This document shows, one piece after another, positions 5,985-33,818 of a DNA stretch of 49,689 bases (position 1 is the first letter of the stretch; every line of letters begins with the position of its first letter). The translations under genes were made by a program, and so were the position numbers. The stretch spans positions 33,083 through 82,771 of the forward strand of contig JADBLP010000075.1 of the NCBI GenBank assembly GCA_014894375.1, given 5' to 3'. The notes under the pieces were generated by a model. The model saw only the letters and a program-made list of their open reading frames with translations. It was not told the DNA's origin and made no database searches. Source of the stretch: Actinomycetota bacterium (GTDB taxonomy: Bacteria; Actinomycetota; Humimicrobiia; Humimicrobiales; Humimicrobiaceae).

Positions 5985-6609
5985 ACAACGTACTTATTAT
6001 ATCACTTGCAGTTTTATCACCAATATCTGGAATCTCCATGAGTTCTTCCTTGGTCGATTCACAAATTGCTTTAATACTTCCTTTAGAATTTAATAATTTC
6101 TTTGCAGTTTTTACTGAAATTCCTTTCACACCAGTTAAACAGTTCTCTTTAAACTCATTTGGATGTTTTGCTCTACGAATAAGTATTTTAGGACGTTCAC
6201 TCTTTCCATCATCATGAACTTTCTTATCTAATGACACAATAAAATCAATATAATCTTCCATACAAGTAAATTGAAATAACTTAATCTTTGGATAGCTTAT
6301 AGCAAGTGTTGTAAGAAATCCCCTATATGAAGAATGTATCCAAGAACTATGGCAAAAATAGAAGTCTCTCCATAAATTCTCATTCACTATGCAGAGAATC
6401 GGAATATCATAATCCACAATCGCATTTAGTTGTTCCCATATCCTTTTAGAAGTCAAAGACGATATCAAATCATGTCCTTTTCTTTCAATTGCTATCCCAC
6501 CATCAAGAAGCACATCAGCAATTTCAATCCTTTGGATTTCTGGATTTAATCCTTTTTTAATTAATCCATTATATGTAATACCTTCCTTTCTATCATCAAC
6601 TATAATCAT
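5959..6609 (-). CDS. ERCC4-domain structure-specific nuclease (XPF/Hef/Mus81-like) with C-terminal (HhH)2
   Basis: N-terminal IVDDRK, the ERK motif GIAIERKGHDLISSL, and C-terminal HhH repeats GVKGISVKTAKKLL and IPDIGDKTASDI. Confidence 0.75.
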   Translation of the reverse strand: MIIVDDRKEGITYNGLIKKGLNPEIQRIEIADVLLDGGIAIERKGHDLISSLTSKRIWEQLNAIVDYDIPILCIVNENLWRDFYFCHSSWIHSSYRGFLTTLAISYPKIKLFQFTCMEDYIDFIVSLDKKVHDDGKSERPKILIRRAKHPNEFKENCLTGVKGISVKTAKKLLNSKGSIKAICESTKEELMEIPDIGDKTASDIISTLCGEYEKQD

Positions 6610-6881
6610 GAACCTGTTTGTACAACTCCTTCTTGCTGAACCCCTTCTACAAATGGTTTTACTTCTGGTTCTGGTGAAACTGGTTTTCTTAATCGCATTT
6701 CTCTTCCATCTATTCCTTTCACGATAATCTTATCTTCCATTCGTGGTTGCGACTTCATTTCCAAGAAAATCCCAAGAACAAACTGCTTTTCTTGTTTCGT
6801 GTTGCAACGTATCATTATATCCTTTTCACTTCTCACTTTTACTTTTATCATTCTTTTACCTCTTAAATCATCAATAACCAT
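6606..6881 (-). CDS. hypothetical protein
   Basis: 91 aa ORF. ATGA overlap with the ERCC4 gene. Confidence 0.45.
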   Translation of the reverse strand: MVIDDLRGKRMIKVKVRSEKDIMIRCNTKQEKQFVLGIFLEMKSQPRMEDKIIVKGIDGREMRLRKPVSPEPEVKPFVEGVQQEGVVQTGS

Positions 6882-7120
6882 GCATCATTTTCTGATGGCA
6901 CTCTATGATGTACACTAAATAAAATTGGATTACAATGTTTATGGAACCAATCATGTTTATGCCAATTTTCTGCATCATCAGATAATCTTGTAAACCATAT
7001 CATATCTCCATCAATCTTATCAATTCTCAATATACTCTTCTTATCTATACCAAGACCACTACCTCTCCAAAAATTATCAATAAGAATGCATTCACCAACT
7101 TTAAACTCTTTCATATTCAA
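6863..7120 (-). CDS. EALAWLI-tail small protein, divergent paralog T7
   Basis: 85 aa. Starts MNMKEFKVGECILI, ends SENDAWLLMI-stop. Confidence 0.55.
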   Translation of the reverse strand: MNMKEFKVGECILIDNFWRGSGLGIDKKSILRIDKIDGDMIWFTRLSDDAENWHKHDWFHKHCNPILFSVHHRVPSENDAWLLMI

Positions 7121-7383
7121 ATCCTCATTGCCAGAAGTTTCTTTTCATATTCATCTTTAGATTCACAACCTGTTGGTGAAATCTTATAGTGTTTTAACCA
7201 ATTCCTTAAAGTCTCAACAGATATATCTGTCGAAGTATTATCTGGAAATTCCATTTTTAATGGGTTCACAAAATTATACTTTTCTTTTAGATACGTCAAA
7301 AGTATATCAATCTGATAATCTTTTAGAGTTTCAATATGTTCATAAAGAATCTGTTTTGCCATATCATCTATTAATCTATTCAT
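7117..7383 (-). CDS. hypothetical protein
   Basis: 88 aa ORF with ATGA overlaps on both sides. Confidence 0.45.
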   Translation of the reverse strand: MNRLIDDMAKQILYEHIETLKDYQIDILLTYLKEKYNFVNPLKMEFPDNTSTDISVETLRNWLKHYKISPTGCESKDEYEKKLLAMRI

Positions 7384-8093
7384 CTGTGTTCATCAATCCT
7401 TTTTATAATCTGCATTGCTTTATTATACTTTCTATCTAGATAAACTGATGTATCTTTATAAAGTAAATTTAGTAGTTTATAAACATTATGGTTCCCACTG
7501 ATTCTTATAACATATAATATATCTGAATAATTTCTTTTATGCACATCCGCTTTTGTATTCATTCCATGATTAATTACAAAGTCTTTAAACTGTTTGCAAA
7601 TATCATAACTCCCATATAACTCTACACAATTGTTTGCATAAGTTTTTCCATATATTATACAACCATCACCATCAACATACCCCCTAAAATAATCTCTTTC
7701 ATATATCTTATTAATATTAATAAGTTTCTCTTTACCGCTCTTCTGAGGGATTATTCCGCAATGAATTAATCTTTTTGCAATTTTATCGGATGTAATTCTT
7801 AACATATATCCATCATATTGTTTATTATACCCCTTAATTCCACAATTATGCCTTGTTGAATATATCACTTTATCTGTTTCTAAAAATTTTTTATATTTGT
7901 ATATATGATTTAAATCTCTACTTTGTAACTGTAATGTGATTGCTTGCGATTCCCCAAATTTTGGTTTAGAAATATTTCCATCTGCCATTAAAAACCCTAT
8001 CCAATATGCCTTATCTGCATTCATTCTTCCTGAAAATACATTATGATTAACATAATATTTTCTATGGCCATTACTTCTTTTTTCATTTACCAT
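7380..8093 (-). CDS. free-standing LAGLIDADG homing endonuclease
   Basis: Two LAGLIDADG motifs: YWIGFLMADGNI and FRGYVDGDGCI. Confidence 0.75.
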   Translation of the reverse strand: MVNEKRSNGHRKYYVNHNVFSGRMNADKAYWIGFLMADGNISKPKFGESQAITLQLQSRDLNHIYKYKKFLETDKVIYSTRHNCGIKGYNKQYDGYMLRITSDKIAKRLIHCGIIPQKSGKEKLININKIYERDYFRGYVDGDGCIIYGKTYANNCVELYGSYDICKQFKDFVINHGMNTKADVHKRNYSDILYVIRISGNHNVYKLLNLLYKDTSVYLDRKYNKAMQIIKRIDEHR

Positions 8094-8118: not shown

Positions 8119-9201
8119 TCAAAAATCGACAAATCCTTTATCCTTTTGTAATCTGATTGGTATCTTAATTCCAGTGGATTGTTCATCCGGTCTTCTTATC
8201 AGTTGAATACGCCTTGCTTCAATTTTCCATTCTTCATTATCATTCTCCGCACATTTAATTTCTTTTTCTGCCTTAGTTCCATTATGAATCTGTAAGATAT
8301 ATTTGGAGTTATAATAGATTGGATTCCCACCATAAGCGTGCCCTGCATCCTTATAACCAACTGTCATCGGGTTGACACTTGCATGATGAAGAACAATTAC
8401 TGCTATATTATAAAGTTCTGCAACTTGATAGAGTTTACCAAATAGTCTTTCAATAATCTGTGCTCTTGCAGGAAGATTACTTGTTTCACTTCCAACAGAA
8501 TCTTTCACTGGCTTTGTGAGTGAATCTATTATTATTAATGATATGTTCTTTAGTTCCTTATCTGTAAGTGTTTCCTCACAGTGATTAAAGATTACTTTAT
8601 ACTTTCCTCCACCTTTCTCTGATAACTCCAATTTAGGAAGATAACCAAACATCATCATAAGTTTCTGGATAGATTGAATCTGTTTATCATCATAAGTTTT
8701 AATCATTCTAAATTTAGATTCTAATTCTTTTTCACTTATCTCAAATCTCTTACTAAGTTTTCCAAGAATACTTTTTAAATCAACTGGTGTAATTCCCTCT
8801 GTATCTATCAAGAGAGTTTCTTTTCCTGTTAATTTTATGTTATTTACCCCAATTTGATAGCACAACCAAGATTTACCTGTCATCGGTTCACCAAAAAGTG
8901 CAGTAACCAATTTGAATGGAACTCCACCACCAAGAAGGTCATCCACGATTTTACTTCCAGTTGGAATCCTTACCATTTCATCTTTCTTATTCACCATTTT
9001 ACTCCTATCTAACTTATTAACTAAAAAATTTATATGTTTACAAGGAATCTGTTGTTTGAAAACATTCGCTTCACATGAACACCATGCTTGTTCATTATCC
9101 TTCTCCAAATCAATGTTTGTGCAATACTCAATCCCTTTATCTCCTTCTATGATTGCTCGACAAATACCCCAATTATCATATTCAATACTAATTAACCTCA
9201 T
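8119..9201 (-). CDS. SWIM zinc finger fused to a RecA-superfamily (RadA paralog/KaiC-like) ATPase
   Basis: SWIM CxCxnCxH motif WCSCEANVFKQQIPCKH. Walker A GEPMTGKS, Walker B LIIIDSLT, and VIVLHH. Confidence 0.75.
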   Translation of the reverse strand: MRLISIEYDNWGICRAIIEGDKGIEYCTNIDLEKDNEQAWCSCEANVFKQQIPCKHINFLVNKLDRSKMVNKKDEMVRIPTGSKIVDDLLGGGVPFKLVTALFGEPMTGKSWLCYQIGVNNIKLTGKETLLIDTEGITPVDLKSILGKLSKRFEISEKELESKFRMIKTYDDKQIQSIQKLMMMFGYLPKLELSEKGGGKYKVIFNHCEETLTDKELKNISLIIIDSLTKPVKDSVGSETSNLPARAQIIERLFGKLYQVAELYNIAVIVLHHASVNPMTVGYKDAGHAYGGNPIYYNSKYILQIHNGTKAEKEIKCAENDNEEWKIEARRIQLIRRPDEQSTGIKIPIRLQKDKGFVDF

Positions 9202-9428
9202 ATCAAATAAGCAAGTGCCTCTTTGTCGTTTAATTCCTCTATCCTATAAACTCCACCAAATGAATTAAAAATAATATTTTTAGGATAGATATTTCCTCTT
9301 TCAAATGGCCAATTATCACCTTCTTTTCTAAATATGATTTTCCCCTTTTCTTCATTAATCATTTGGACAATATAATATTCACCTGTTTTAATTCTTATAT
9401 CTTTAAAACATTTTCCTTTATATATCAT
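9198..9428 (-). CDS. EALAWLI-tail small protein, paralog T8
   Basis: 76 aa. Ends LNDKEALAYLI-stop. ATGA overlap with the SWIM-RecA gene. Confidence 0.75.
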   Translation of the reverse strand: MIYKGKCFKDIRIKTGEYYIVQMINEEKGKIIFRKEGDNWPFERGNIYPKNIIFNSFGGVYRIEELNDKEALAYLI

Positions 9429-10632: not shown

Positions 10633-11652
10633 TTAAACCCCTCCTTTACTATTAATTTCTGCTATTTTATCTTCAAGTTCATTAAGTTTATTCTCTAATT
10701 TATTAATTTCAACAAATTTATCAATTTCATCTACGATAGGATATATTACCTTAGTGATTTTGCCAATTTTATTCTTATATTTAATTATCTCACCAATACC
10801 AATCATTTTCTTGTATACAATTTTACCCGTTGTAGCATCATACTTATGTAAAATACTGTTAATATATTTTGCGTATGGTTCATAATTTGTACAATATATT
10901 AAATAATAGTACGGTAAAACTGGTCTTGTAAATATATGACTCCAATCTTTTTCTAACATAAGATGAATATAACATTCAACAATTTCTTCACTATTCATTT
11001 TCTCATCACTATTATATAAGTATTCAACTGCCTTCAATAAAGATTCTGGTAACGAAACATTCAAACTTTTTGTCTCATATCCTAATTTTTTCTTAAGCCC
11101 TAAACTTCTACGTATTCCTTCTAATTGAAATGTTATTATTATATCCAAATTTTCTTGTTTTCTTAAGTATTCTATTGTACTTAATGGTAATTGATTATCA
11201 CTCCATCCACAAGGGTCTAAAATAATTGTTTTTATTTTCTTTGAGATAATTTCTTTACCTATATCTGAAGAAGCATCTGTCATCAATTCATTACAATCAC
11301 CATGATATGTACAAACTTTAGTTGTGAATTCTCTTCCTAATTTATTTCTTAATTTTTCTATATTTCTATTTAAACAATCAAATACTTCTTTATCTTTCTC
11401 TATAAAATATATTGGTGTCTTATTCCATGGTTGTAATAATAATTTAATAGTTGGATTATAATACTCATTTCCCTCTATGTCAGAATTAATCCCTGGTCCT
11501 GCATTTGCATCTATAATTACACCTTTATTTTTAACTATGAAACTTGTTTTTTGTAACAAATCATAAGTTATTATTTCTTTAGTAAAAGAATGTGATTTAA
11601 TTCTAAATCCAATTAATTCACCATCCTTATATATTTTTGTATTACCACTCAT
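10633..11652 (-). CDS. methyltransferase-fold-like protein, possibly TcmP-like partner protein
   Basis: Motif-I-like VIIDANAGPG, then IYFIEKD, HGDCNE and IILDPCGW. This order is as I recall for the three-Cys-motif partner (TcmP) family. Family assignment is from memory only. ATGA overlap with the upstream ParB-rSAM gene. Confidence 0.4.
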   Translation of the reverse strand: MSGNTKIYKDGELIGFRIKSHSFTKEIITYDLLQKTSFIVKNKGVIIDANAGPGINSDIEGNEYYNPTIKLLLQPWNKTPIYFIEKDKEVFDCLNRNIEKLRNKLGREFTTKVCTYHGDCNELMTDASSDIGKEIISKKIKTIILDPCGWSDNQLPLSTIEYLRKQENLDIIITFQLEGIRRSLGLKKKLGYETKSLNVSLPESLLKAVEYLYNSDEKMNSEEIVECYIHLMLEKDWSHIFTRPVLPYYYLIYCTNYEPYAKYINSILHKYDATTGKIVYKKMIGIGEIIKYKNKIGKITKVIYPIVDEIDKFVEINKLENKLNELEDKIAEINSKGGV

Positions 11653-12974
11653 TCTATAATCTCCTGTTCTGGTAAATTTAATAATCTTTTATAACTTTCT
11701 TTCCATCTAATCTTTGGAGTGTCTTTATAAATACTATATAACCATTGAACAAATTCCAACTTTATAGTTTGGAGAATCATATGAAATTCTGGAGTATTAT
11801 GATTTGATTTATCTACTCTTGATTCTATCTCATTCATTTTCCCTAACCAAATAGTTTGTGTAACAAATGGAGAACACTTATAAACTACAATTGGAATTGT
11901 CCCATCTAAAATTGGTTCGCAACTAACAGAAGTTTCAAATCCTTGTTTAAATGCATATTCTAAACTTTCTAATCTCTCTTCAAATGATGGTGTGTTAGGT
12001 TCCCAGAATTTAAGAACTTTATTACTATAACTTCCAATTGTAAATCGGAACATTATTTGTTTCTTATAATCTTTTAATTCTTTGCAAATCTTTTTAACAC
12101 AATCTAAATGTGGTTTAGATGTTATAAGTATCTCATTTCCTACTTTCAATTGTTTCTTTAAATAAGATATGCAATCATCCACATTTTCTGGAGTAATATC
12201 ATGTGTAGTAGGAAACATCCCCCTACCTTCTTCTTTCTTTACTTTATCCAGAAATCCTTTCAATCTTTTTGGTTTAATCCATTCTGCTTCATTCTTTACT
12301 GAATGATATTTATTAATAGCATCATATTTTGCATAGCAATATTTACAATCGTGTCTGCATCCACTATCTATATTAATAGAATAATCTGACCATTCTCTTG
12401 TTCCAGATTTAGGAATTTCTCTCTCAGAAGTTGGTATAGATTTTGATTCATCAAATGATTTCTGTTTAACTTTTCTATATACTTCATCAATAGACATTCC
12501 TTTATTCATCTTATCTATTAATTCTCTATCACCTGATTCAACTACTTGTTTTGCCTTTGAGAGTGAATCTGTTGAGTATCCTGTGATTTTAGAAGCTCTG
12601 GCAATTTTACGTGGACTTCGTTCAGAATCTGAACCAAGTTCTAAATCAGTTCTTTCTCCCTGATAACTCTCTTCATCTTGCCAAACTTTAACTGCTTCTT
12701 CTGGTGTGAATGGTTCTCTCTTTATATTCTCATGCCTTTCATCTGCTTTTATATCATCTGTATCTTTAACTATATAATGAATGCCTTCTGTTAATTCTTT
12801 AATCCCTAATTTTTTAAGTGCTTCTAATCTCCTTTCACCATATTTTAACTGTTTATCTTTGGTTATACCAATCGGATGAAGTAATCCTCTATCTTTAATA
12901 CTTTCTGCAAGAGAATCTATATCACCCAAATCTTTTCTGTATCGTTTTCCAACTTTAATTTCATCTATTTTCAT
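11649..12974 (-). CDS. ParB-like N-terminal domain fused to a radical SAM domain
   Basis: ParB/Srx-like region LAESIKDRGLLHPIGIT..YGERRLEALKKLG. Canonical CX3CX2C cluster SGCRHDCKYCYA, resembling the SplB/COG1533 context. Confidence 0.7.
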   Translation of the reverse strand: MKIDEIKVGKRYRKDLGDIDSLAESIKDRGLLHPIGITKDKQLKYGERRLEALKKLGIKELTEGIHYIVKDTDDIKADERHENIKREPFTPEEAVKVWQDEESYQGERTDLELGSDSERSPRKIARASKITGYSTDSLSKAKQVVESGDRELIDKMNKGMSIDEVYRKVKQKSFDESKSIPTSEREIPKSGTREWSDYSINIDSGCRHDCKYCYAKYDAINKYHSVKNEAEWIKPKRLKGFLDKVKKEEGRGMFPTTHDITPENVDDCISYLKKQLKVGNEILITSKPHLDCVKKICKELKDYKKQIMFRFTIGSYSNKVLKFWEPNTPSFEERLESLEYAFKQGFETSVSCEPILDGTIPIVVYKCSPFVTQTIWLGKMNEIESRVDKSNHNTPEFHMILQTIKLEFVQWLYSIYKDTPKIRWKESYKRLLNLPEQEIIE

Positions 12975-15698: not shown

Positions 15699-15959
15699 CT
15701 AAATCATGTACGCAAATGCTTCTTTCTCTGAAGAAATTTCATCATGCCAACTAACATTTTCAATTTGAGTAAGAAATCCAGAAATCATTCCCACTCGATA
15801 TGTACCCTTACTAATAACTGTACCGTCAAATGCTCTTCCACTATTATTCTTACCAAATCCATATGGTTCTTTATCAACTATAATAAAATCTGGTTTTGAT
15901 TCCTTCCAACTCCTTTTTATGATATTACCTTTCTTATAGATATTCTCATTAAGTTTCAT
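15699..15959 (-). CDS. EALAWLI-tail small protein, paralog T10
   Basis: 86 aa. Ends SSEKEAFAYMI-stop. Confidence 0.7.
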   Translation of the reverse strand: MKLNENIYKKGNIIKRSWKESKPDFIIVDKEPYGFGKNNSGRAFDGTVISKGTYRVGMISGFLTQIENVSWHDEISSEKEAFAYMI

Positions 15960-16187
15960 CTAAATCATTCTCACAAATGCCTCATCTTTGGATATAATCT
16001 TGAAATATGGTGGTTCTATACCATCCCAGAAATAAGTATTCAATCCTTTCTCAAATCCATTTAACCAAAATATCCATATTTTTCTACCTTCTTCAATCTT
16101 ATTAACCTTACCAATATCGCCCTTTCCATTATCTGTTATTAAATCAATAACATAATCACCAATCTTAACTTTCTTCATATCATCCAT
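15960..16187 (-). CDS. EALAWLI-tail small protein, paralog T11
   Basis: 75 aa. Starts MDDMKKVKIGDYV, ends ISKDEAFVRMI-stop. TAGATG junction with T10. Confidence 0.7.
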   Translation of the reverse strand: MDDMKKVKIGDYVIDLITDNGKGDIGKVNKIEEGRKIWIFWLNGFEKGLNTYFWDGIEPPYFKIISKDEAFVRMI

Positions 16188-16417
16188 GCCAACATCTCTT
16201 TTTCAGTTAAGAATTTATGAATTGTGGTTTTAGAATGTCCGAGCCCAAAACTTGTTTCCTCTCCAATATATCCTTCCCTACCAGAATTTGTCTTTAAGAT
16301 TCTATAATACACATCATTTCCTTTTATCTTAATAATTTTACCACAATTCATCCATTTATCATTAGGATTTCTATCTTTCCTCAAAACATATGGTTTATCA
16401 GTTATTGATTTCTTCAT
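16175..16417 (-). CDS. EALAWLI-tail small protein, paralog T12
   Basis: 80 aa. Ends LTEKEMLAWMI-stop. 13-nt overlap with T11. Confidence 0.75.
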   Translation of the reverse strand: MKKSITDKPYVLRKDRNPNDKWMNCGKIIKIKGNDVYYRILKTNSGREGYIGEETSFGLGHSKTTIHKFLTEKEMLAWMI

Positions 16418-16926
16418 CGTTTCATCCTCATTAACTTGTTATAATATTTCAGAATTGAATCAATAGAAACTGGTCTAAAATCCCATACGTCTGTTCCAAC
16501 ATTAATCACTGGAACATCTTGCAAAAAGATATACTTCCATTTGTTATGGATATGACCACAGAGGACTGCATCAAAATTCTCAATATATGTATTTGCATCT
16601 GGTGGTCTGTGTTGCACTAGAAACTTCTTATTTCCAAATTCCATAACTGCTGATTGAATAAGCGTTTTAACTCCAGAATTGTAATCGTGATTCCCTGCGA
16701 TATGAACAATCCTTCCATGAAGTTTCTTTTCCCATTCAAGTGCCTTATCTTGCCCTTTAAACGAGAAATCCCCCACATGATAGACTAAATCATCTGGTTC
16801 AACTTTTTTATTCCATCGTTTGACGATTTCATCATTCATTTCATCTATATCTTTGAATGGTCTATTTGCATAGATGATTATGTTACTATGTGAAAAGTGG
16901 CAATCACTTGAAAAATAAATCCTCAT
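16414..16926 (-). CDS. calcineurin-like metallophosphoesterase
   Basis: Motifs SDCHFSH, VGDFSF, GNHD and GHIH, in canonical order. Confidence 0.75.
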   Translation of the reverse strand: MRIYFSSDCHFSHSNIIIYANRPFKDIDEMNDEIVKRWNKKVEPDDLVYHVGDFSFKGQDKALEWEKKLHGRIVHIAGNHDYNSGVKTLIQSAVMEFGNKKFLVQHRPPDANTYIENFDAVLCGHIHNKWKYIFLQDVPVINVGTDVWDFRPVSIDSILKYYNKLMRMKR

Positions 16927-16937
16927 ATTAACCTCAC

Positions 16938-17174
16938 CTAAATCATTGATAAAAATGCCTCATCTTCAGTTACTACCTCAATTTCTCTTTCTGCAAATGG
17001 AAGATTATTAAATCCCTTGCGAACTGGAATAAAAATATTCACATCATATGGATAAGTTTGTGCGTATGAACTAACTCCTATAATCTTACCAACCTTATTT
17101 CTGTATCTCTCCATATTTTTATCTGGATTTAAAATCCTCACATAATCTCCTGATTTATACTTTAAATTAGCCAT
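16938..17174 (-). CDS. EALAWLI-tail small protein, paralog T13
   Basis: 78 aa. Starts MANLKYKSGDYVRIL, ends VTEDEAFLSMI-stop. Confidence 0.7.
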   Translation of the reverse strand: MANLKYKSGDYVRILNPDKNMERYRNKVGKIIGVSSYAQTYPYDVNIFIPVRKGFNNLPFAEREIEVVTEDEAFLSMI

Positions 17175-17428
17175 GCAAGAATCTCTCCATCTGTTGCCAA
17201 AATAATCTCATCATCTTTACAAATCCCATATGGTCTTTCTGTCCAATCTAATCCTTCCATCCTCTTATCTAAACATTCTATACGGTAAGGAAAACTGCAA
17301 AATTCAGGTTCATCAATTGAAAATATCTTATAGATTTTACCTATGCTTGCCTTATCCTTCTTGCTCTCACCATCACATGATTTAATTACCTTGACGTAAT
17401 CTCCCACCTTGAATTTCATATGAGCCAC
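17162..17428 (-). CDS. EALAWLI-tail small protein, paralog T14
   Basis: 88 aa. Starts MAHMKFKVGDYVKV, ends TDGEILAWLI-stop. 13-nt overlap with T13. Confidence 0.75.
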   Translation of the reverse strand: MAHMKFKVGDYVKVIKSCDGESKKDKASIGKIYKIFSIDEPEFCSFPYRIECLDKRMEGLDWTERPYGICKDDEIILATDGEILAWLI

Positions 17429-17679
17429 GCTAAAACTTCCCTTTCTGGGATTTCTCTGATTATGTTTGGTTTCTTAATATATACACAATAACCATGTCTT
17501 CCTATATTTCTAGTATTGTTTCCCCCACTATGAGTTGTTCCTAGAGGTCTTAATGCTTCAAATGTATACCAAGGTTCAATTTCGTTATCTTCCCCAAGAT
17601 ATCTCACTATTTCTCCATCATGTTTTAGATAACCACCACCAGATACGATATAATAATGATTCAGTTTTAAATCAACCAT
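17416..17679 (-). CDS. EALAWLI-tail small protein, paralog T15
   Basis: Track ORF 17416..17718 trimmed to the ATG (MVDLKLNHYY) that sits in the Trp codon of the T16 tail. Ends PEREVLAWLI-stop. Confidence 0.7.
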   Translation of the reverse strand: MVDLKLNHYYIVSGGGYLKHDGEIVRYLGEDNEIEPWYTFEALRPLGTTHSGGNNTRNIGRHGYCVYIKKPNIIREIPEREVLAWLI

Positions 17680-17903
17680 GCTAATGCTTCCTTTTCTGAT
17701 AGTTTTTTTAATTTGCAATGAGCAATATATAATCTACAAATTTTAGGAAATTGTAATGATTCAACTTCAACTGAACCACCAACATAAAACTTTGTTATTC
17801 TACAAACTTTATAATCTTTTAAATAATCACCATTATAATGAGCAGACTGTGGTAAAACTGTAAGTTTCACTATATCTCTAACTTTAAATTTTAGATTAAC
17901 CAT
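17667..17903 (-). CDS. EALAWLI-tail small protein, paralog T16
   Basis: 78 aa. Starts MVNLKFKVRDIV, ends LSEKEALAWLI-stop. Confidence 0.8.
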   Translation of the reverse strand: MVNLKFKVRDIVKLTVLPQSAHYNGDYLKDYKVCRITKFYVGGSVEVESLQFPKICRLYIAHCKLKKLSEKEALAWLI

Positions 17904-18142
17904 GCTAATGCTTCTCTTTCAGATAATTTTTCCATCTCATGTTTAGCATATATTACTCCACAATTTTCATTAGTTCCTTTAACTTTTCTGAAGAATTTAA
18001 CTACATATGGATATTTCTGTTCTAAAAAACCTATCTGTTTAATCTGTGCAACTTCTCCTTCTACATTTCTCCAATTTGGATAAGTCTTATCAACATTGAC
18101 TAATCTTACTACATCACCTATCTTAAACTTTAGATTAACCAT
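17891..18142 (-). CDS. EALAWLI-tail small protein, paralog T17
   Basis: 83 aa. Starts MVNLKFKIGDVV, ends LSEREALAWLI-stop. Confidence 0.8.
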   Translation of the reverse strand: MVNLKFKIGDVVRLVNVDKTYPNWRNVEGEVAQIKQIGFLEQKYPYVVKFFRKVKGTNENCGVIYAKHEMEKLSEREALAWLI

Positions 18143-18372
18143 GCGAGTGCTTCCTTGTCATTTAATATCGACAAATATGGAATACATCCTTCTTGATACC
18201 CATCCTCAGTATAACTTCCCTCAATCAATGTATTATAAAGTAATCTTACCCTAATAACATTTGCTTTTACAGATATTACCTGTCCTATCTCAATCCCATG
18301 CCCGATTTCACCACTAACATATTTCAATACCATACCAAGTTTGACTTGTTTAAATGATTTAAGTTTCTTCAT
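18130..18372 (-). CDS. EALAWLI-tail small protein, paralog T18
   Basis: 80 aa. Ends LNDKEALAWLI-stop. ATGA overlap with the VWA gene. Confidence 0.8.
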   Translation of the reverse strand: MKKLKSFKQVKLGMVLKYVSGEIGHGIEIGQVISVKANVIRVRLLYNTLIEGSYTEDGYQEGCIPYLSILNDKEALAWLI

Positions 18373-20966
18373 TTCACCACAACCACCTTGCCAAATGGAA
18401 ACTTATCATTCTCAAGTTTGTTTTCCCCTGCAACAATCCATAAAACATCAAGTCTTGCGTCTGATTTCTTCGGAAATTCTGTGTAACCATCAGTAAAACA
18501 TATAATAAATTTGGCATTTGGTCTTTCTTTTTTAAGCCACTTGAATACTGGGAGATGACTAGTCCCCCCTCCACCTTTCAATTTCACCTTGTTTCGTATA
18601 TCCCCAACGGTTGCTTGTTTGAATGTATGAACCCCATGAATTGCACAATCACAATCAATAATCGTCAAGTCCACATTCTTGAAACTGCGTGTGATTCCTA
18701 CTAATTCACCTAAGAACATTTTTAACTCCACATCTGAAATACTATTATGAACTAATATTCCATTAGCAAAATAATTATGATTATCTTTAACTTCTAAATC
18801 ATATACATCTATCTCTTCTGACAATTCAATTATTTTAGAACTTTTAACCTTCTCTAATACTATATAATCATTATAATCAATATAAATAGAGTTTTTTATA
18901 TTTTTAGTTTTTCTTAAATATTTCTCTATCTTGATTTTTTTGTCATTCCTTGTTACACCAACCATTTCATAGAATTTCTTAATGTTTTCTCTACCAGTTA
19001 CTTTTAACTTATAAATCAGTGTTTCTTTGATTATATTATCTCCTATTTTCCTTTCGGGTGTAATAGAACTTTCAATATAGCAATATATTCCTAATCTATT
19101 TAATAACATTTGCAATTGATATATTAGCTTTTTACTTGTGTTACTAAATGTTAAATCATGTTCTCCAATATGTCCTTCTGCATCAAAAAATCCTCTTATA
19201 AAACCACAAATAACATCATCATCTGCAACCGTTATTAAATTTGGAATATTCCTATACCTACTTCTTACTACAATATCTTCAAAATTTGTTTTTAGATAAT
19301 TAACAAATTCCTTTGAATAAATTGATAACCGTTGTCTTCTACAATGATTAGTTATCTTTGAATTAATATTTAATTTTCTAATTAATATTTGATAATACTG
19401 TAGATTTTCAATATTTTTGTCTGTTATTTGAGCGTAAAAAGAATTTTTACAAATACTCAGATTCCCATCACCACAAATCATTCCTAATACTTCTGCAAAA
19501 TCTCTATTGATATATGATGGTATAACTGGATGTCCTATTTTTGGCTTAATTCCTTTTAGAATCCTATAAACCTTCATACTACCTATTCCAGTGAGTTTAT
19601 GTATCTCATAACCACTATGTTTCCCAGATAATTCTATAACTTTTGAAACTTCATTTGGTGTTGCTAAATATTTATTATTATAACGTATCTCTGGCAATAT
19701 TACTTTATTCTGTGAAAAATCTATCTTTTTTGTGGTTATTAACCAATCATTTTTTCTTATTTCATCTGCTCTTTTTTCAATAATTTTTCCTTTCTTTAAC
19801 CAACTATTTTTTCTATCCCCCCATTCTCTGGCAAAGTTATTTACATATATAAATATCTTATGATTTGGTGTTACTTTTATCTCTTTTCCACTTTTTGTCT
19901 TTATTGTGATTATCTTCTTTGCTTTATATACAAATTTCTTATTAACCATATCCAATTTATTAACAGAAAAATCAGAATTTATCAAAGAAATTGGATTTAT
20001 TATATCTCTTATTTCTTTTATTCCTTCATCCGTGTATATTAATGTATCCCCAACAAAGCACCCACTTGTATCTATCGAAGCAATTATCTCAATAGATTCC
20101 TTTTCTGTAGAAGGAAGATAAATTCCAGTTGAAATGGTCCTTTTAGATGGTCTACTCCAAGTATAATCCATTGGAACCATAGATGAGATATATTTGAAAA
20201 GATATGTTCTCCAATTCACTTTAGGAGCAATCAAATCACCGATTATTCTTTCCATCCCTACTGGTACACTCCCACGATTCTTTGCATGGGCACAAGCATC
20301 AAGTAGAACCTTTCTCCAATGATTCTTTAAATCATTTTCATCTCGAAATGGAGATTTACCTTCACCTTCTTTACCATCTCCATCTTTGCCTTCCCCCTCA
20401 CCTTCTTTTGGATGGATATGTTCATCAAATCTCCCTTTTTCTCCATTTGCAATTGCCTGTTGAGTTGCTTCTTTTCCTTTCTTGGAGAAATACTTGTGAA
20501 GTTCATCATAGATTTCTCCTGAAGATTTAGTATCTATCTTTTCAATCTCATAACCTTGGAAGTTAAACTTATTATCCTTTGGAACCAATGCCCCTTGCTT
20601 ATCAGGAAGTTTCATGTTATCCTTAATTAAGATGTTATTCACTACAATATCACTTGCGATGTTTGCTAATTCTGGATACTGTTTCAACTCCTGTGCAAGT
20701 GTCATATGTTCCAAAACAACGTGCATAATTTCGTGACAAAGAACTCCATAAATTTCATCATCTGTAAGTGATTCAATAAACTTAGGATTCCAATAGCAAT
20801 CTCCATATGCAGAAACACCCATTGTCGGACACTCCTTTCTTTCTTGAAATTTCAAGTGTGAAACAAGAAAAGAAAAGAATGGTCTGCCTTCTGGTGGGTC
20901 TGCTCCAATCCGAATCTTTGCCTTGATAATCCTTTCTTCTGGTGTTAGTTTCAATTCATCTGTCAT
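18369..20966 (-). CDS. putative metallopeptidase (HExxH) / VWA-like protein (DUF2201/COG3864-like), interrupted by an intein
   Basis: N-terminal region has HEIMHVVLEH. The extein junction restores the MIDAS motif IDTSG|SISD. The C-terminal part has IIDCDC..GGGGTSHLPVF..ICFTDGY, typical of the MoxR-partner VWA family. Confidence 0.8.
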   Translation of the reverse strand: MTDELKLTPEERIIKAKIRIGADPPEGRPFFSFLVSHLKFQERKECPTMGVSAYGDCYWNPKFIESLTDDEIYGVLCHEIMHVVLEHMTLAQELKQYPELANIASDIVVNNILIKDNMKLPDKQGALVPKDNKFNFQGYEIEKIDTKSSGEIYDELHKYFSKKGKEATQQAIANGEKGRFDEHIHPKEGEGEGKDGDGKEGEGKSPFRDENDLKNHWRKVLLDACAHAKNRGSVPVGMERIIGDLIAPKVNWRTYLFKYISSMVPMDYTWSRPSKRTISTGIYLPSTEKESIEIIASIDTSGCFVGDTLIYTDEGIKEIRDIINPISLINSDFSVNKLDMVNKKFVYKAKKIITIKTKSGKEIKVTPNHKIFIYVNNFAREWGDRKNSWLKKGKIIEKRADEIRKNDWLITTKKIDFSQNKVILPEIRYNNKYLATPNEVSKVIELSGKHSGYEIHKLTGIGSMKVYRILKGIKPKIGHPVIPSYINRDFAEVLGMICGDGNLSICKNSFYAQITDKNIENLQYYQILIRKLNINSKITNHCRRQRLSIYSKEFVNYLKTNFEDIVVRSRYRNIPNLITVADDDVICGFIRGFFDAEGHIGEHDLTFSNTSKKLIYQLQMLLNRLGIYCYIESSITPERKIGDNIIKETLIYKLKVTGRENIKKFYEMVGVTRNDKKIKIEKYLRKTKNIKNSIYIDYNDYIVLEKVKSSKIIELSEEIDVYDLEVKDNHNYFANGILVHNSISDVELKMFLGELVGITRSFKNVDLTIIDCDCAIHGVHTFKQATVGDIRNKVKLKGGGGTSHLPVFKWLKKERPNAKFIICFTDGYTEFPKKSDARLDVLWIVAGENKLENDKFPFGKVVVVK
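18744..20060 (-). mobile_element. intein (439 aa) with LAGLIDADG homing endonuclease, inserted in the VWA MIDAS motif
   Basis: Starts with Cys (CFVGDTLIY; TGC at 20060..20058). Ends ..GILVHN, followed by Ser (AAT at 18746..18744). Internal LAGLIDADG motifs LGMICGDGNL and IRGFFDAEGHI. Confidence 0.8.
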
Positions 20967-20982: not shown

Positions 20983-21264
20983 TTAAATCAGATATGCTAA
21001 TGCTTCTTTTTCTGATAATTTCCTTATTACATTCTTCCTATCTTTATATTTACAACAATCATATTTACCATATCTACCAAATGACAATTTAAAACTACTT
21101 CCGTCACCATCAAAATCTCCGCTTTTAGTAAAAACTTCAAAGAGATAATCTATTAAATCTCCAGTATTATCTTTTCCTATAAATCTTGCCACTATCTCTT
21201 TTCCATATTCTTTAATCAGAAAATACTGTTCCAAATCACTTTCATCTAAATTCATGTGTTTCAC
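20983..21264 (-). CDS. EALAWLI-tail small protein, paralog T19
   Basis: 93 aa. Ends LSEKEALAYLI-stop. The downstream gene has its own AGGAG SD. Confidence 0.75.
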   Translation of the reverse strand: MKHMNLDESDLEQYFLIKEYGKEIVARFIGKDNTGDLIDYLFEVFTKSGDFDGDGSSFKLSFGRYGKYDCCKYKDRKNVIRKLSEKEALAYLI

Positions 21265-21507
21265 CTAAATCATGTAAAGAAAAGCTCTCTCCATTCCATT
21301 TGTAGTATCATCTATTATTTCTAAATTATTATATAACTGCATATATTCTCTCCCTTTAAAACACCCATTTATCCAATTTACATCTACTGCATCACTACCT
21401 TTATATTTTACATTAACTTTTGTAACTACTCCTATTGCCCCTTTATCTGCCATACCAACATCTTTCACTATATTCCCAACTTTAATCTTCCTTTTCACTT
21501 TTCCCAC
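21265..21507 (-). CDS. EALAWLI-tail small protein, divergent paralog T20
   Basis: 80 aa. Contains KIKVGNIVKDV, ends GMERAFLYMI-stop. The start overlaps the MoxR 3' end. Confidence 0.6.
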   Translation of the reverse strand: MGKVKRKIKVGNIVKDVGMADKGAIGVVTKVNVKYKGSDAVDVNWINGCFKGREYMQLYNNLEIIDDTTNGMERAFLYMI

Positions 21508-23758
21508 AATCCGTTATGTTAAAGAAGTATTTCTTATATTTCTTGCTGAAGTTGTCAAAGTGCTTACTTGCCAGAACATCTTTAATAAACCCATCTTGAT
21601 TTCTTCCTCTAATAATCCGTAACATGCAGATTGAAAAGTCTGGTGTAAGATTATCAGCAATCTCCAAAACCTTATCCATAGGAACTTCTGGTTTAGCATT
21701 CTTTCTAGTTTTCACTGGTTCTCTTTCAGAAAAGTACCACTCTGCTACAAGAGTTATAAGTGAATACTTCAAATCAATTTCAACAATTTCCTTTGCTTTT
21801 GTAGGGTCTGAAAGAATATCTGTTAGATTCACTTTACGTTTCAATCTCAAGAAACTAGCAAACTCCTTTGCAGGATATTCCCCAACTGCTGAAGCGGTAT
21901 ATCTTTCGATAGATTGAATATCTTCTTTTCCTTTAATAAGAGGACTACAGAGTTTTCCCCAAGAACGTGGAGTTGGAAATGCCATTTCATCTGTTTCTAC
22001 ATTTTCTTTTGGATTCAAATGAGTTGGATGTTGCATGAGAAAAGTTACGATTCTAAAGTCAATCCCATTTGCGAGTGCCCATTCACCCCAATCATTTTCA
22101 CATTTATCTGTTATCCCAGGTGCTTCAAGTGTAACATGTGTAAAACGATTCCTAAGAGGTCTGGAAAGTTCATAGACATTTGCTCTATCTTCTAAACGAT
22201 TCCCTGCTGCAACGCACATAACACCATCTGCAAGTGAAACTTCCCCACATGCCCTATCATTAATCACTTGATAAGAAGATGATTGTACACTTTGCGGTGC
22301 AAGATTTATTTCATCAAAGAAAATAATGCCTTCTGCTCCTTTTAAAGAGGCTAATTGTACCCAAATTGGAACCATCCATTCAACTACTTTTACATCTCCA
22401 ACTTTGTCTCCACCATTCACTTTTCTCAAGTCTGGAATTCCTTTTATATCGGATGGGTCACACATAGAAAGGCGTTCATCTTTCAGGAAGAAATACCTCT
22501 GTGGACTTTTCAGAACATCTTGTTTTTCATCCATAGAAAGTTTAGACCATTCTACATATATTTTCCCACGCTTTTGTGCAATATCTTTCGCTTTCTTTCT
22601 AACCGTATCGCTATTGTGAGTAACTGTAAAATCACCTAATAAAAATAAACCATCTTTATCTAGAGTAAACCCAAAGTATTCACCTATCCCTTTCTCTTTG
22701 ACATTGACCCCTGTTACTAGTACATCCTTTTTTTGTTTTCTTTTGTGAGCTTTTCTTCTTGTAATTTTTGTTGGTATTCTTATAATATCCCCAGAAATTG
22801 TAATGTCAAAAACTTCAGTTTCGTAATTTCTAGATTTTAATCTTGCAATTCCTGTTTTCTTATATGCTGCAAATCCAAGTGAACGTGCTAAAAATAAAAC
22901 ATCATCTGCTAACTTTTCATTAACAGATGTATAAATAAAACAATTGCATTGTAAATGCCCATCAGTATCAATTAATCCAGCTAGTAATTGTAATCTCACC
23001 TCTTGTGAATTAATTTTATATTCTTGTGGAATATGTTTATTTAAAATTAAATTCAAACTTCTCAATTTTTCTAGGACTGTATTTAGCGGTCTATTAGTTT
23101 TCTTTCCCATTACACCAGTTGTAATTCTGTATGAATTAGTTTTAGAATCTGTTTTATTGACATCAACATGAACTTTAAGATTTTCACTTTCAGCGAATTG
23201 TGTTAAAAATTCAACTATCTCTTTATCTTGTGTTGTAATACTAGGTGTTCGTGAATTACCGTCTCCTAACCATATCCCCAAAAAGTATGGGTCTAATATA
23301 ACTTTCTGGAATGGAAAATCTACACCTACACGATAAAGTTTGTGTTGGTGTTTAAAATGATTACTCTTCTTAATATAATCTTTAACTGAAATATTAAGAA
23401 TTTCTCCCCCTTTCTTTATGCTATGATATCTATTCCAATGATAACTCCTTTTCAATGACAAAATATGATGTTCGTTAGTTGAAAATGATTCGCCTTTTAC
23501 CGGCATAACTTCATATAACTTATCTTTACCAGAAGTTATAGTTAAGACCTTACGTGGAGTTGAATCTACCCCCATTAATTCATCCCCTACATTAATATCT
23601 TCAACTAATTTTATGATTCCATTATACATTAACACTGTCGTCCCTTTTTCAAGGCACTTCCCGATTCCTGGTGCTCCCCAGATATACATCGGAATTTTCC
23701 CATTATTGTAATGCTCTTCAATCATTTCCTCAAGTTCTTTGTGTCGTACAGATAACAT
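21482..23758 (-). CDS. MoxR-like AAA+ ATPase (AAA_5), interrupted by an intein
   Basis: Walker A is split as GAPGIGK|[intein]|SDT. Walker B IIFFDEINLA, sensor AAGN, and LRNRF. Confidence 0.8.
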   Translation of the reverse strand: MLSVRHKELEEMIEEHYNNGKIPMYIWGAPGIGKCLEKGTTVLMYNGIIKLVEDINVGDELMGVDSTPRKVLTITSGKDKLYEVMPVKGESFSTNEHHILSLKRSYHWNRYHSIKKGGEILNISVKDYIKKSNHFKHQHKLYRVGVDFPFQKVILDPYFLGIWLGDGNSRTPSITTQDKEIVEFLTQFAESENLKVHVDVNKTDSKTNSYRITTGVMGKKTNRPLNTVLEKLRSLNLILNKHIPQEYKINSQEVRLQLLAGLIDTDGHLQCNCFIYTSVNEKLADDVLFLARSLGFAAYKKTGIARLKSRNYETEVFDITISGDIIRIPTKITRRKAHKRKQKKDVLVTGVNVKEKGIGEYFGFTLDKDGLFLLGDFTVTHNSDTVRKKAKDIAQKRGKIYVEWSKLSMDEKQDVLKSPQRYFFLKDERLSMCDPSDIKGIPDLRKVNGGDKVGDVKVVEWMVPIWVQLASLKGAEGIIFFDEINLAPQSVQSSSYQVINDRACGEVSLADGVMCVAAGNRLEDRANVYELSRPLRNRFTHVTLEAPGITDKCENDWGEWALANGIDFRIVTFLMQHPTHLNPKENVETDEMAFPTPRSWGKLCSPLIKGKEDIQSIERYTASAVGEYPAKEFASFLRLKRKVNLTDILSDPTKAKEIVEIDLKYSLITLVAEWYFSEREPVKTRKNAKPEVPMDKVLEIADNLTPDFSICMLRIIRGRNQDGFIKDVLASKHFDNFSKKYKKYFFNITDCGKSEKED
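22613..23656 (-). mobile_element. intein (348 aa) with LAGLIDADG homing endonuclease, inserted in the MoxR P-loop
   Basis: Starts CLEKGTTVLMYNG (TGC at 23656..23654). Ends ..FTVTHN, followed by Ser (AAT at 22615..22613). LAGLIDADG motifs LGIWLGDGNS and LLAGLIDTDGHL. Confidence 0.8.
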
Positions 23759-24365: not shown

Positions 24366-24617
24366 TTATATCAACTCTGCCAACATTTCCTTTTCAGATA
24401 AGATTTTTACTGTATCACCATTACCTTTATATAAATCTTCTTCCCCCACCTTGTAAATTGTTTTCCATTCCACATCATCTATTATCTTTAGTATTTTGAT
24501 ATACTTACTATCTCTAGGTGAAAGTTTATTCTCAAGATAATATCCCAAGTAAACCGTATGTCGATTCGGTTCTCCTCTTGGTCTTATCATTTTTACATAT
24601 GTTACCATAATCACCAT
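24366..24617 (-). CDS. EALAWLI-tail small protein, paralog T22
   Basis: Track ORF trimmed to the ATG at 24617 (TGATG junction). Ends LSEKEMLAELI-stop. Confidence 0.7.
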   Translation of the reverse strand: MVIMVTYVKMIRPRGEPNRHTVYLGYYLENKLSPRDSKYIKILKIIDDVEWKTIYKVGEEDLYKGNGDTVKILSEKEMLAELI

Positions 24618-24898
24618 CAAATTAGATATGCTAACGCTTCTCTTTCATTTATTTTGTAATAATCATCAATTGTAAACCATCCACACAATCTAATCTGGTT
24701 GTCTGCACCATCTGTGAATAAATCCAACATCTTTAATGAAGTGTATCCTCTCACAATAACTGGAATCCTATCTCTGAGTGTCAGTTGTTTATTTACTTTT
24801 GATTCAACAATTATCCTTTCTTTATCTTCTATTATTAAAATTATATCTCCCTTTTTTATGCAATCCCCAATTTTAAGTTTCTGCTTCATTTGTATCAA
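24617..24898 (-). CDS. EALAWLI-tail small protein, paralog T23
   Basis: 93 aa. Contains KLKIGDCIKKGD, ends INEREALAYLI-stop. Confidence 0.75.
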   Translation of the reverse strand: MIQMKQKLKIGDCIKKGDIILIIEDKERIIVESKVNKQLTLRDRIPVIVRGYTSLKMLDLFTDGADNQIRLCGWFTIDDYYKINEREALAYLI

Positions 24899-25215
24899 AT
24901 CATCCGTGCTATTACTTCATTTTCATCAATAAGTTTATCATACATACCTGTTAAATTAAAAGTGTGTGTAGTTATAAACCCAAGTAGTCTTTCATTATTT
25001 GAATATTGTATTGGTGAACAAACAATTTTTGCTTTATTAACATATCTATCATATACAATGTCTGGTTGATTATCCAAATCTTTATATATAGTTATTTTAC
25101 GATAAGAATTTCCTAGAATTAAAAATATAATGTATCTACCAGTATTATACCCAACTTCATCAATAAATGTTCTTTTTACATATTCTCCTTTTCTTGGATA
25201 TTTTCTTTTCTTCAT
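24895..25215 (-). CDS. EALAWLI-tail small protein, paralog T24
   Basis: 106 aa. Ends IDENEVIARMI-stop. ATGA overlaps on both sides. Confidence 0.65.
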   Translation of the reverse strand: MKKRKYPRKGEYVKRTFIDEVGYNTGRYIIFLILGNSYRKITIYKDLDNQPDIVYDRYVNKAKIVCSPIQYSNNERLLGFITTHTFNLTGMYDKLIDENEVIARMI

Positions 25216-25761: not shown

Positions 25762-26013
25762 TCATATCATATACAACATTGCTTCCCCTTCAGATAAAAG
25801 ATAAAACTTACAATTTCTATAATAAACTGAACCGTAACTTCCAACATGGAACCTATGGGTTATATCTTTCACAATCTTCAATTTGGTTCCACCGATTTCC
25901 ATTTCTCTTCCATCATTTTTTTCACATATTTTTAGAAGTTTTTCTCCATCCGATTCCCATTCTTGGATATAATAATCCCCTATCTTTATCTCACTTGGAT
26001 GGACTTCTTTCAT
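25762..26013 (-). CDS. EALAWLI-tail small protein, paralog T25
   Basis: 83 aa. Contains EIKIGDYYIQ, ends LSEGEAMLYMI-stop. Confidence 0.7.
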   Translation of the reverse strand: MKEVHPSEIKIGDYYIQEWESDGEKLLKICEKNDGREMEIGGTKLKIVKDITHRFHVGSYGSVYYRNCKFYLLSEGEAMLYMI

Positions 26014-26254
26014 TCTTTTCTCCTATCCCAGAAAACCATTTGTTAAGATGTGAATTGAAATGCCACTTATCCATATCAAAATCCAGCATTTGCTCGATAT
26101 TACAAGATGGACAAGCATTGTGCTTACTTATTGCGTGTTTTATCACTAAATCAGCATGTAGATGTGGTATTGGAACTGCCACCTTGATTCTGATAATCCC
26201 ATCTTTTGTTAAGAAAATGGATTGATTTTCCAGTTCAATTATATTCCAATTCAT
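25991..26254 (-). CDS. hypothetical protein
   Basis: 87 aa ORF. ATGA overlap with T26. Confidence 0.4.
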   Translation of the reverse strand: MNWNIIELENQSIFLTKDGIIRIKVAVPIPHLHADLVIKHAISKHNACPSCNIEQMLDFDMDKWHFNSHLNKWFSGIGEKNERSPSK

Positions 26255-26502
26255 ATCAACCTTGCTAGAAGTTCTTTTTCTGAAAGTTTATAGATTTTAT
26301 CTTCATCCAAAATTGAAAATGATTTAAAATGGTTACGTTCACTCCAAAATCTGTCATCTGATAAATCTTTTATTAGTATTAATTTATTCTGCTTATTAGT
26401 TGTAAACATAATTCTATCAGTTGAAGAAGAGGTATCATTAATTAAATAGTAGATTCCTCCTTTCCTTAAAGCATTATTATCTTTTATTTTTCTCATATCC
26501 AC
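26251..26502 (-). CDS. EALAWLI-tail small protein, paralog T26
   Basis: 83 aa (GTG start at 26502, or ATG at 26496). Ends LSEKELLARLI-stop. Confidence 0.7.
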   Translation of the reverse strand: MDMRKIKDNNALRKGGIYYLINDTSSSTDRIMFTTNKQNKLILIKDLSDDRFWSERNHFKSFSILDEDKIYKLSEKELLARLI

Positions 26503-30748: not shown

Positions 30749-30813
30749 GCTCTTACTTCCTTAACCCAATAACCCTTTAAGCTATTGGTCGATTAAAGAA
30801 TAAAAACATCTAA

Positions 30814-33815: not shown

Positions 33816-33818
33816 AAC

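Follow-up and report, generated by a model that had tools for sequence, protein, structure and literature searches.

A conserved C-terminal tail and a preferred alanine codon as the probable basis of a repeated 13-nt gene overlap in a family of small proteins from an uncultivated tailed virus

The stretch of DNA analysed here, referred to as the window throughout, comprises 49,689 nucleotides (nt) of contig JADBLP010000075.1 and is a portion of an uncultivated tailed virus, the minus strand of which codes for an expanded family of small proteins, nine of them packed head to tail at positions 15699-18372. At nine boundaries of the window the last 13 nt of a family gene also contain the first 13 nt of the next gene, a start codon for the latter, the sole standard one at five of these boundaries, being embedded at the Trp codon of the conserved C-terminal tail of the former. 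These junctions are probably explained by the combination of the conserved protein tail, a marked preference for the alanine codon GCA, the reading phase common to short gene overlaps and the recombination of gene cassettes. They represent a variant of the well-known biology of overlapping genes and mosaic cassettes rather than a new mechanism, and illustrate that a protein motif together with a codon bias can create a non-canonical 13-nt overlap throughout a family without dedicated selection; the overlap mechanism itself raises no new question.

A profile trained on the window assigns 27 open reading frames (ORFs) to the family, and a profile built solely from proteins of other contigs recovers 20 window ORFs at E <= 1.2e-3. 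With the tail motif taken into account the family comprises 28 members of 75-106 amino acids (aa), all located on the minus strand between 1615 and 30327 and spanning roughly 7 kb of the 50-kb window. Their consensus reads xxKFKVGDxVxV...GKIxxI...YPYxVxFL...E-L-x-K-L-S-E-K-E-A-L-A-W-L-I, the bodies of the paralogues being at most 41% identical and the tails near-invariant. In the AlphaFold2 model (pLDDT 88.8), a small beta-barrel is followed by a C-terminal helix (residues 69-76, tail pLDDT 93-95) and, since this helix is modelled with confidence, the tail most plausibly serves the structure of the protein. An 88-aa protein coded at 7117-7383 on the minus strand, which the family profiles miss, ends with the family-tail-like KKLLAMRI and may be a very divergent member. 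The family is rare and was found only on short environmental contigs (L016-L021, L023, L029 and L030), which constitute the relatives considered below, and on near-identical copies of the genome (L031 and L032). Relatives occur in the samples ERZ27247124, ERZ27248036, ERZ27297509, ERZ27247880, SRR33452760, ERR3772643, JGI 3300062706 and SRR13615824.

The original prediction described nine members in the array, with a phosphoesterase gene as the sole interruption, and this organization was confirmed. The members and the junctions that link them are as follows, SD standing for a Shine-Dalgarno site.

18130-18372, minus strand: member 1, 80 aa, tail KEALAWLI; it starts in an ATGA that overlaps the DUF2201/VWA gene upstream.
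18130-18142, minus strand: junction ATGGTTAATCTAA; the following gene (MVNLKFKIGD) has no standard start other than the Trp-embedded ATG, and the orthologous junction is kept in L029.
17891-18142, minus strand: member 2, 83 aa, MVNLKFKIGD...REALAWLI.
17891-17903, minus strand: junction ATGGTTAATCTAA, sole start; the Leu-Ala codons directly 5' of it contain the two-cassette breakpoint of L018.
17667-17903, minus strand: member 3, 78 aa, absent from L018.
17667-17679, minus strand: junction ATGGTTGATTTAA, sole standard start (MVDLKLN).
17416-17679, minus strand: member 4, 87 aa, divergent body, tail REVLAWLI, absent from L018.
17416-17428, minus strand: junction GTGGCTCATATGA; a GTG stands at -13, and 17419 offers a canonical ATGA start.
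17162-17428, minus strand: member 5, 88 aa from the GTG or 85 aa from the ATG at 17419; 84.5% DNA identity to L018 69-355.
17162-17174, minus strand: junction ATGGCTAATTTAA, sole start (MANLKYK); its stop codon is where the homology with L018 breaks off.
16938-17174, minus strand: member 6, 78 aa, tail EAFLSMI, ending with TAG; a separate SD, GGTGAGGT, serves the gene downstream.
16414-16926, minus strand: calcineurin-like metallophosphoesterase gene interrupting the array (PF12850, 2e-11; phrog_547, 1e-40).
16175-16417, minus strand: member 7, 80 aa, tail KEMLAWMI; ATGA-overlap start with the phosphoesterase gene.
16175-16187, minus strand: junction ATGGATGATATGA; ATGs in the same frame occur at -13 and -4, and the public call P0016 takes the latter.
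15960-16187, minus strand: member 8, 75 or 72 aa, tail EAFVRMI, a TAG followed directly by ATG.
15699-15959, minus strand: member 9, the last of the array, 86 aa, tail KEAFAYMI.

For the gene 17416-17679, the TTG at 17718 that opens the longest ORF, with a 52-nt overlap, is a less likely start. Further members and junctions occur elsewhere in the window.

4779-5269, minus strand: two members (5024-5269 and 4779-5036).
5024-5036, minus strand: junction with two start options and an AAGGAGG SD 6-7 nt before the -13 ATG.
4779-4791, minus strand: junction with a sole start, feeding the non-family gene 4486-4791 (MVNLKKK).
1615-2657, minus strand: three members (2409-2657, 1881-2159 and 1615-1884), the first with tail AWCI and a TAATG start for the next gene.
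1615-1627, minus strand: junction GTA TGG TTG ATA TGA (MVDMNEKC), feeding the non-family gene 1460-1627.
5736-5984, 6863-7120 and 9198-9428, minus strand: scattered members without Trp at position -3.
20983-21264, 21265-21507, 24366-24620, 24617-24898, 24895-25215, 25762-26013, 26251-26502, 27748-27981, 27995-28279, 28295-28531 and 30007-30327, minus strand: eleven members without Trp at position -3.

The geometry proposed for eight of these junctions holds for all of them: on the minus strand each follows the scheme ...GC(A/G) TGG (TTA/TTG/CTA/CTC/ATG) AT(T/C/A) T(A/G)A, in which the next ORF begins, in the -1 frame, with the A/G-TG that straddles the Ala-Trp codon boundary. Ten copies of the degenerate 13-mer RTGGHTNATHTRA were counted in the window, compared with 0.94 +/- 1.0 in dinucleotide shuffles (maximum 4), and nine of the ten matches are family tails. 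The tenth, at 42080-42092 on the plus strand, was discarded as a chance match: it coincides with the start of an HNH gene (ATGGTTGATTTAA, MVDL...) two bases past the stop of the portal gene, with no family tail upstream. It had been stated that eight of ten tails with Trp at position -3 carry the downstream start; the pattern is sound and the count has to be raised to nine of ten with an ATG or GTG, the junction 1615-1627 having been left off the list. The remaining Trp tail, that of 2409-2657 (GCT TGG TGT ATT TAATG), shows a TTG at that place, and the gene that follows most likely uses the TAATG start, as called in its orthologue in L030. The description of tails devoid of Trp, as relying on ATGA overlaps or on SD sites of their own, is by and large correct.

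Depending on their last codons, the nine junctions fall into two types. Five end with ATT/ATC TAA (18130-18142, 17891-17903, 17667-17679, 17162-17174 and 4779-4791) and, since no other ATG, GTG or TTG precedes the conserved KFKxGD strand, the ATG of the Trp codon must be the start; at 4779-4791 the same absence holds before the conserved body of the non-family gene. The other four end with ATA TGA (17416-17428, 16175-16187, 5024-5036 and 1615-1627) and offer two in-frame candidate starts, 9 nt apart. The GTG start with a nearby ATG anticipated at 17416-17428 was recovered as described, and at the equivalent place the gene call of a relative takes the ATGA start (P0008, MKFKVGD). Public gene calls are split in this respect, P0005 starting with MDDMK..., as opposed to P0016 (MKKVK...) and P0008 (MKFKV...). 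In four tails (2409, L020, L023 and L030) the base before TGG is a T, and the canonical overlapped ATG is present in all of them.

The origin of the embedded ATG can be accounted for by codon usage. GCA represents 70% of the Ala codons genome-wide and, followed by the TGG of the Ala-Trp dipeptide, it spells ATG by default. Selection for an A in front of TGG was rejected: GCA is used at codon -4 by 7 of the 9 Ala-Trp tails and by 8 of the 10 tails in which Ala is followed by another residue (Fisher p = 1). In addition, the -1 frame over the tail (ATG GNN NAT NTR A) cannot hold a stop, the Trp ATG shares the frame of the canonical ATGA position and precedes it by exactly 9 nt (13 = 4 + 9), and overlaps of 1, 4 and 13 nt all share one reading phase. 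Owing to the GCA bias, the stop-free -1 frame and the shared phase, the geometry is explained without special selection. What appears to be selected is the canonical ATGA overlap, as deduced from the association of the Ile codon ATA with a TGA stop, which concerns 9 of 11 tails ending in ATA and 2 of 17 ending in ATT or ATC (p = 3.6e-4).

The idea that tail and downstream N-terminus are co-constrained by dual coding proved overstated, the tail being equally conserved in the 18 of 28 members that lack the Trp or the overlap. Synonymous sites of the tail vary (TTA/TTG/CTC/CTT for Leu, GAA/GAG, AAA/AAG), residues 2-4 of the downstream proteins (V/A/D, N/D/H, L/M) mirror the codon changes upstream, and members with other starts (MKFKVGD, MLKVGD) have no N-terminal extension. 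Taken together, the equal conservation of the tail, the free synonymous sites and the tracking residues indicate a one-sided constraint: the tail is preserved for its protein sequence, and the product downstream, that of a non-family gene included, takes its first four residues from it.

The succession of events would be as follows. The C-terminal helix ending in ...S-E-K-E-A-L-A-W-L-I-stop is conserved at the protein level, and its Ala-Trp residues at -4/-3, written with the preferred GCA and TGG, spell an ATG 13 nt before the end of the stop codon. The downstream gene would then start either at a canonical ATGA, in tails ending with ATA TGA, or at the Trp-embedded ATG; behind ATT/ATC TAA tails the latter is the only start available, in effect co-opted. 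Initiation at this ATG is probably aided by the purine-rich E-K/R-E codons located 6-9 nt upstream and, alternatively or jointly, by ribosomes terminating 13 nt downstream. Finally, unequal or illegitimate recombination within the shared tail/junction region of some 25-35 nt would add, delete or swap cassettes and recreate a working stop/start junction each time, by which the 13-nt geometry may have been spread and fixed.

Translational coupling across the 13-nt junction would be plausible. Ordinary genes of the virus possess AGGAG/GGTGA-like sites 4-10 nt upstream of their starts, and the nine Trp ATGs are preceded by SD matches of -2.9 to -10.6 kcal/mol with a spacing of 6-13 nt (6-9 nt in eight of the nine), which come from the E-K/R-E codons. 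A role of the SEKE codons as an SD element had been put forward and amounts to a non-significant trend, the Trp tails scoring -4.6 and the non-Trp tails -2.9 kcal/mol (p = 0.19), with -2.5 at random coding positions; a GGA/GAGG motif is found in 6 of 9 Trp-ATG tails and 7 of 19 others. The probability of being unpaired is 0.50 at Trp ATGs and 0.55 at ordinary starts, and RNA structures occluding the start were not predicted at the junctions (mean z = +0.4), which leaves classical coupling of the unfolding type without support. The -4, -1 and -8 overlaps predominate, longer ones being rare, and coupling by termination-reinitiation drops steeply with distance (PMC10666635, PMC6728339, PMC12548453), -4 and -1 being by far the commonest arrangements in prokaryotes (PMC10666635). 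A back-step of 13 nt lies within the range tested in synthetic operons and is likely to be less efficient than -4.

An alternative, considered unlikely, is that the junction is a selected dual-coding element in which the tail and the N-terminus constrain each other, coupling is obligatory and the SEKE codons serve as a built-in SD. It would fit with the five junctions that have no other start, with the SD-like matches 6-9 nt upstream, including one perfect AAGGAGG at 5036, and with the somewhat stronger SD of the Trp-ATG tails (-4.6 vs -2.9); moreover, the Trp tail that does not use its embedded codon (2409) reads AAAGAAGC, without an SD, and the geometry is kept in relatives. This interpretation is disfavoured by the tail motif being just as conserved without overlap, by the lack of any GCA excess before Trp and by downstream residues 2-4 that vary freely and are missing altogether in other members. 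The difference in SD strength is not significant, the predictions show no occluding structure, and a distance of 13 nt is expected to reduce reinitiation relative to -4 (PMC10666635).

More improbable still is the view that the ATG is an unused by-product, the true starts being ATGA, TAATG or non-canonical codons and the 13-nt overlaps artefacts of taking the longest ORF. Such artefacts do occur, since the Ala-Trp ATG at 6881 gives a spurious 19-nt overlap and the Trp ATG that follows P0029 in L019 opens a mere 8-codon ORF, and an ATGA alternative is present at four junctions of the window. However, at 18142, 17903, 17679, 17174 and 4791 there is no ATG, GTG or TTG between the Trp ATG and the conserved strand or body, and the same holds for L016a and L029. 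In addition, orthologues switch from one start type to the other, which indicates that both are usable: the gene 4486-4791 stands behind a TAA tail (MVNLKKK) and its orthologue at 911-1213 of L016 behind ATA TGA (MVDMKKKK). As far as can be judged from these sequences, this switch suggests that the two start types are interchangeable and the three extra residues neutral. A programmed -1 ribosomal frameshift, or a read-through fusing the cassettes into polyproteins, is hardly conceivable: although the downstream frame is -1 and open across the whole tail, the 0 frame (TGG TTA ATT TAA) is devoid of slippery heptamers of the X XXY YYZ type, the predictions show no stimulatory structure, each downstream gene possesses a start codon, gaps with SD sites separate the non-Trp members, and the long ORFs read normally under code 11 with all three stop codons in use.

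The spurious 19-nt overlap arises at 6863-6881, where the tail of the member 6863-7120 (DAWLLMI) carries its Ala-Trp ATG at -19 with respect to the gene 6606-6881. That gene really starts further downstream, at an ATG preceded by AAGAGGT; its orthologue in L019 begins with MTIKVK, and the annotations differ, with 91 aa (Logan, L031) vs 81 aa (NCBI, L032). The family-wide 13-nt overlap is a warning for gene callers, which disagree on the starts concerned. Another 13-nt overlap of longest ORFs, at 3471-3483 on the minus strand, is unrelated to the Trp-tail motif and involves the non-family genes 3471-3653 (tail MEELCVS) and 3190-3483 (MCILVTC...).

Conservation of the geometry in relatives, a test set beforehand, was borne out by 13-nt overlaps in at least 6 other samples: L016 (twice), L017, L018 (twice), L019, L020, L021 and L029. 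An exhaustive profile search among 1.84 billion representative proteins returned 42 matches, about 24 of them from other contigs. A homologue search with the alignment of the window members returned only proteins of this same contig, and look-ups from the edge of the window yielded only near-identical copies that end within it. With blastn, the array had no counterpart among 50,697 phage records; IMG/VR, scanned twice for degenerate DNA patterns of the tail/junction, yielded 0 and 15 hits, all 15 due to chance (no match to the family hidden Markov model), a tail-pattern scan of the GTDB representative genomes gave 25 hits, none of them real, and a metagenome pattern scan gave 7 hits, the one in L023 being real. 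Neither Pfam nor PHROG contains a match to the family; for PSI_PsaE (PF02427), KOW (PF00467) and DUF1918 (PF08940) no member reaches the gathering cut-off, the best PsaE score being 15 bits against a cut-off of 27, with 2 of 28 members matching at E <= 0.1. The family is unannotated, virus-specific and confined to a deep-branching virus lineage.

The junction had also been proposed as a patch of homology for the duplication or shuffling of cassettes, and the breakpoints do coincide with it, but a single event could be mapped at nucleotide resolution and the identity at its joint is short. In L018, which shares ~82-84% DNA identity with the window, bases 2-87 match the 3' end of the gene 17891-18142 and bases 86-355 match the junction 17416-17428 and the gene 17162-17428 (~84% identity each). 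The cassettes 17667-17903 and 17416-17679 (475 nt) are therefore absent from L018, and the two matches meet within TTAGC, inside the tail and directly 5' of the Trp codon. Past the stop codon of 17162-17174, L018 contains a different 90-aa family member and a 34-aa ORF, and the homology resumes at the SD of the phosphoesterase gene, so that a cassette replacement is delimited by this stop codon and this SD. Differences in cassette number are found in other relatives: between the orthologues of 7117-7383 and 6606-6881 the window has a single cassette, as compared with three in L019 and two or more in L017. In L016, the slot flanked by the orthologues of 5266-5754 and 4486-4791 is kept with two cassettes, which are not orthologous to those of the window.

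Among non-family genes, a free-standing LAGLIDADG endonuclease gene at 7380-8093 (minus strand) lies between the RadA-like gene and the 88-aa gene. In L017 (617-1516) and L019 (1013-1984) the same slot is occupied by an unrelated protein of 299-323 aa with a faint double-zinc-ribbon (DZR) match, which amounts to a gene replacement between relatives.

Several points weigh against the proposed combination of a conserved tail, GCA bias, shared phase and cassette recombination. Recombination precisely at the junction relies on one clean case, L018, together with copy-number differences on contigs of 1-3 kb, and the L018 event may have been an insertion or a deletion, with a joint identity of only ~5 nt in present-day sequences. 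A recent array of tandem duplications was rejected, in view of the low identity of the bodies, the absence of any gene-length tandem repeat detected by Tandem Repeats Finder and neighbours that are barely closer; with adjacent paralogues (0.27) barely more alike than non-adjacent ones (0.24), any duplications must be old. The SD-like signal is moderate and not significantly stronger than in the non-Trp tails, and the predictions provide no occluding RNA structure that would couple the genes. At four of the nine window junctions the real start may be the ATGA. All start codons were deduced from ORF structure and paralogue alignment.

A more ambitious interpretation would make the tail a universal plug for a cassette repertoire with fast turnover, serving at once as a helix, as a ribosome-binding and start region and as a recombination patch, so that cassettes are always expressed; it is put forward as a tentative possibility. 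If it were true, even unrelated genes could be inserted, deleted or shuffled and still stay expressed, and the lineage would keep a changing assortment of SH3-like proteins, which might serve host takeover or counter-defence. As it stands, one sequence marks the gain and loss of cassettes and offers a compact natural example of coinciding expression signals and recombination points.

Mosaic phage genomes, such as those of the lambdoid phages with their modular evolution, recombine between genes at conserved boundary or linker sequences. The present junction resembles them by its short conserved boundary, on which the breakpoints of an insertion/deletion or replacement fall (L018), and differs by a boundary that codes in two frames within one expanded family, with a joint identity of ~5 nt. 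With respect to the co-directional ATGA/TAATG overlaps (Huber et al. 2019, PMC6728339; 2023, PMC10666635; PMC12548453), the likeness consists of the tight co-directional packing, of a start located inside the 3' end of the upstream gene and of the phase, all nine 13-nt junctions being in the same phase as -4/-1 overlaps; the family itself makes heavy use of ATGA, as reflected in the ATA-TGA association. The differences are the length of 13 nt, reported as rare in those papers, and the formation of the overlap by a conserved Ala-Trp dipeptide repeated over a family of paralogues. In the coat/lysis pair of the RNA phage MS2, a single regulated pair with a known dependence on structure (reviewed in PMC12548453), the downstream start similarly precedes the upstream stop and may depend on terminating ribosomes, whereas the junction described here is repeated and lacks a predicted structure.

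The expanded, unannotated family and its turnover pose a more interesting question than the overlap, and its function would be worth finding. On the basis of the model, the fold is predicted to be an SH3-like beta-barrel capped by the C-terminal helix: the confident model displays a five-stranded barrel and has structural matches with TMq values of 0.58-0.74 to YorP, PsaE, Spt5-KOW and a phage PsaE-like protein, the Foldseek E-values against the PDB being weak (>= 0.016). YorP from the Bacillus subtilis prophage SPbeta (PDB 2HEQ; Foldseek E 0.016, TMq 0.62) and the 'PsaE-like protein' of Bacillus phage Kirov (E 1.2e-4, TMq 0.74) are alike in predicted fold, and PsaE gives a sequence-profile match at 8.6e-4. 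Compared to YorP, the Kirov protein, PsaE and KOW domains, the C-terminal EALAWLI helix that ends the protein and the 20-28-fold expansion are particular to this lineage. The nearest SH3-like barrels (YorP, PsaE, Spt5/NusG KOW and the Kirov protein) have functions that are either unknown or unrelated.

The 82.8-kb source contig was deposited as a metagenome-assembled genome of an 'Actinobacteria bacterium'. Its identity as a tailed virus follows from genes for a large terminase, a portal protein and tail fibres and from a weak match to a head protease, on the plus strand; the low identity of the terminase to the closest deposited phages indicates a deep-branching virus. A scan of the whole window for tRNA genes found none, a scan for promoters and terminators between 13 and 22 kb gave the same result as expected from shuffled sequences, and an alternative genetic code was ruled out, all three stop codons being used and the long ORFs intact (code 11). 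The main genes outside the family are the following.

38987-40477, plus strand: large terminase (TerL), ~24-26% identity to its best matches (Bacteroides and Bacillus phages) among 50,697 deposited phage genomes.
42074-42796, plus strand: HNH endonuclease gene, between the portal and the putative head-protease genes.
18369-20966, minus strand: intein-split DUF2201 metallopeptidase/VWA-like gene with a LAGLIDADG endonuclease in the intein (PF13203, PF14890, PF14528, PF09967).
21482-23758, minus strand: second intein gene, 758 aa, with Hom_end-associated Hint and homing-endonuclease domains.

The long minus-strand arm, of the early/replication type, codes for a Rad51/RadA-like ATPase, an ERCC4+HhH nuclease, an RNase H-like exonuclease, a radical-SAM/ParB_N protein and the two intein-containing genes. 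The positions 5959-6609, 8119-9201 and 11649-12974 (all on the minus strand) cover recombination genes of archaeal or eukaryotic flavour, namely the ERCC4 nuclease with tandem HhH motifs and the Rad51/RadA-like ATPase with an N-terminal SWIM zinc finger, and the ParB_N/radical-SAM protein, a fusion resembling spore photoproduct lyase. Beside the switch from minus to plus strand, the regions 30500-33900 and 35600-38900 contain few or only short ORFs.

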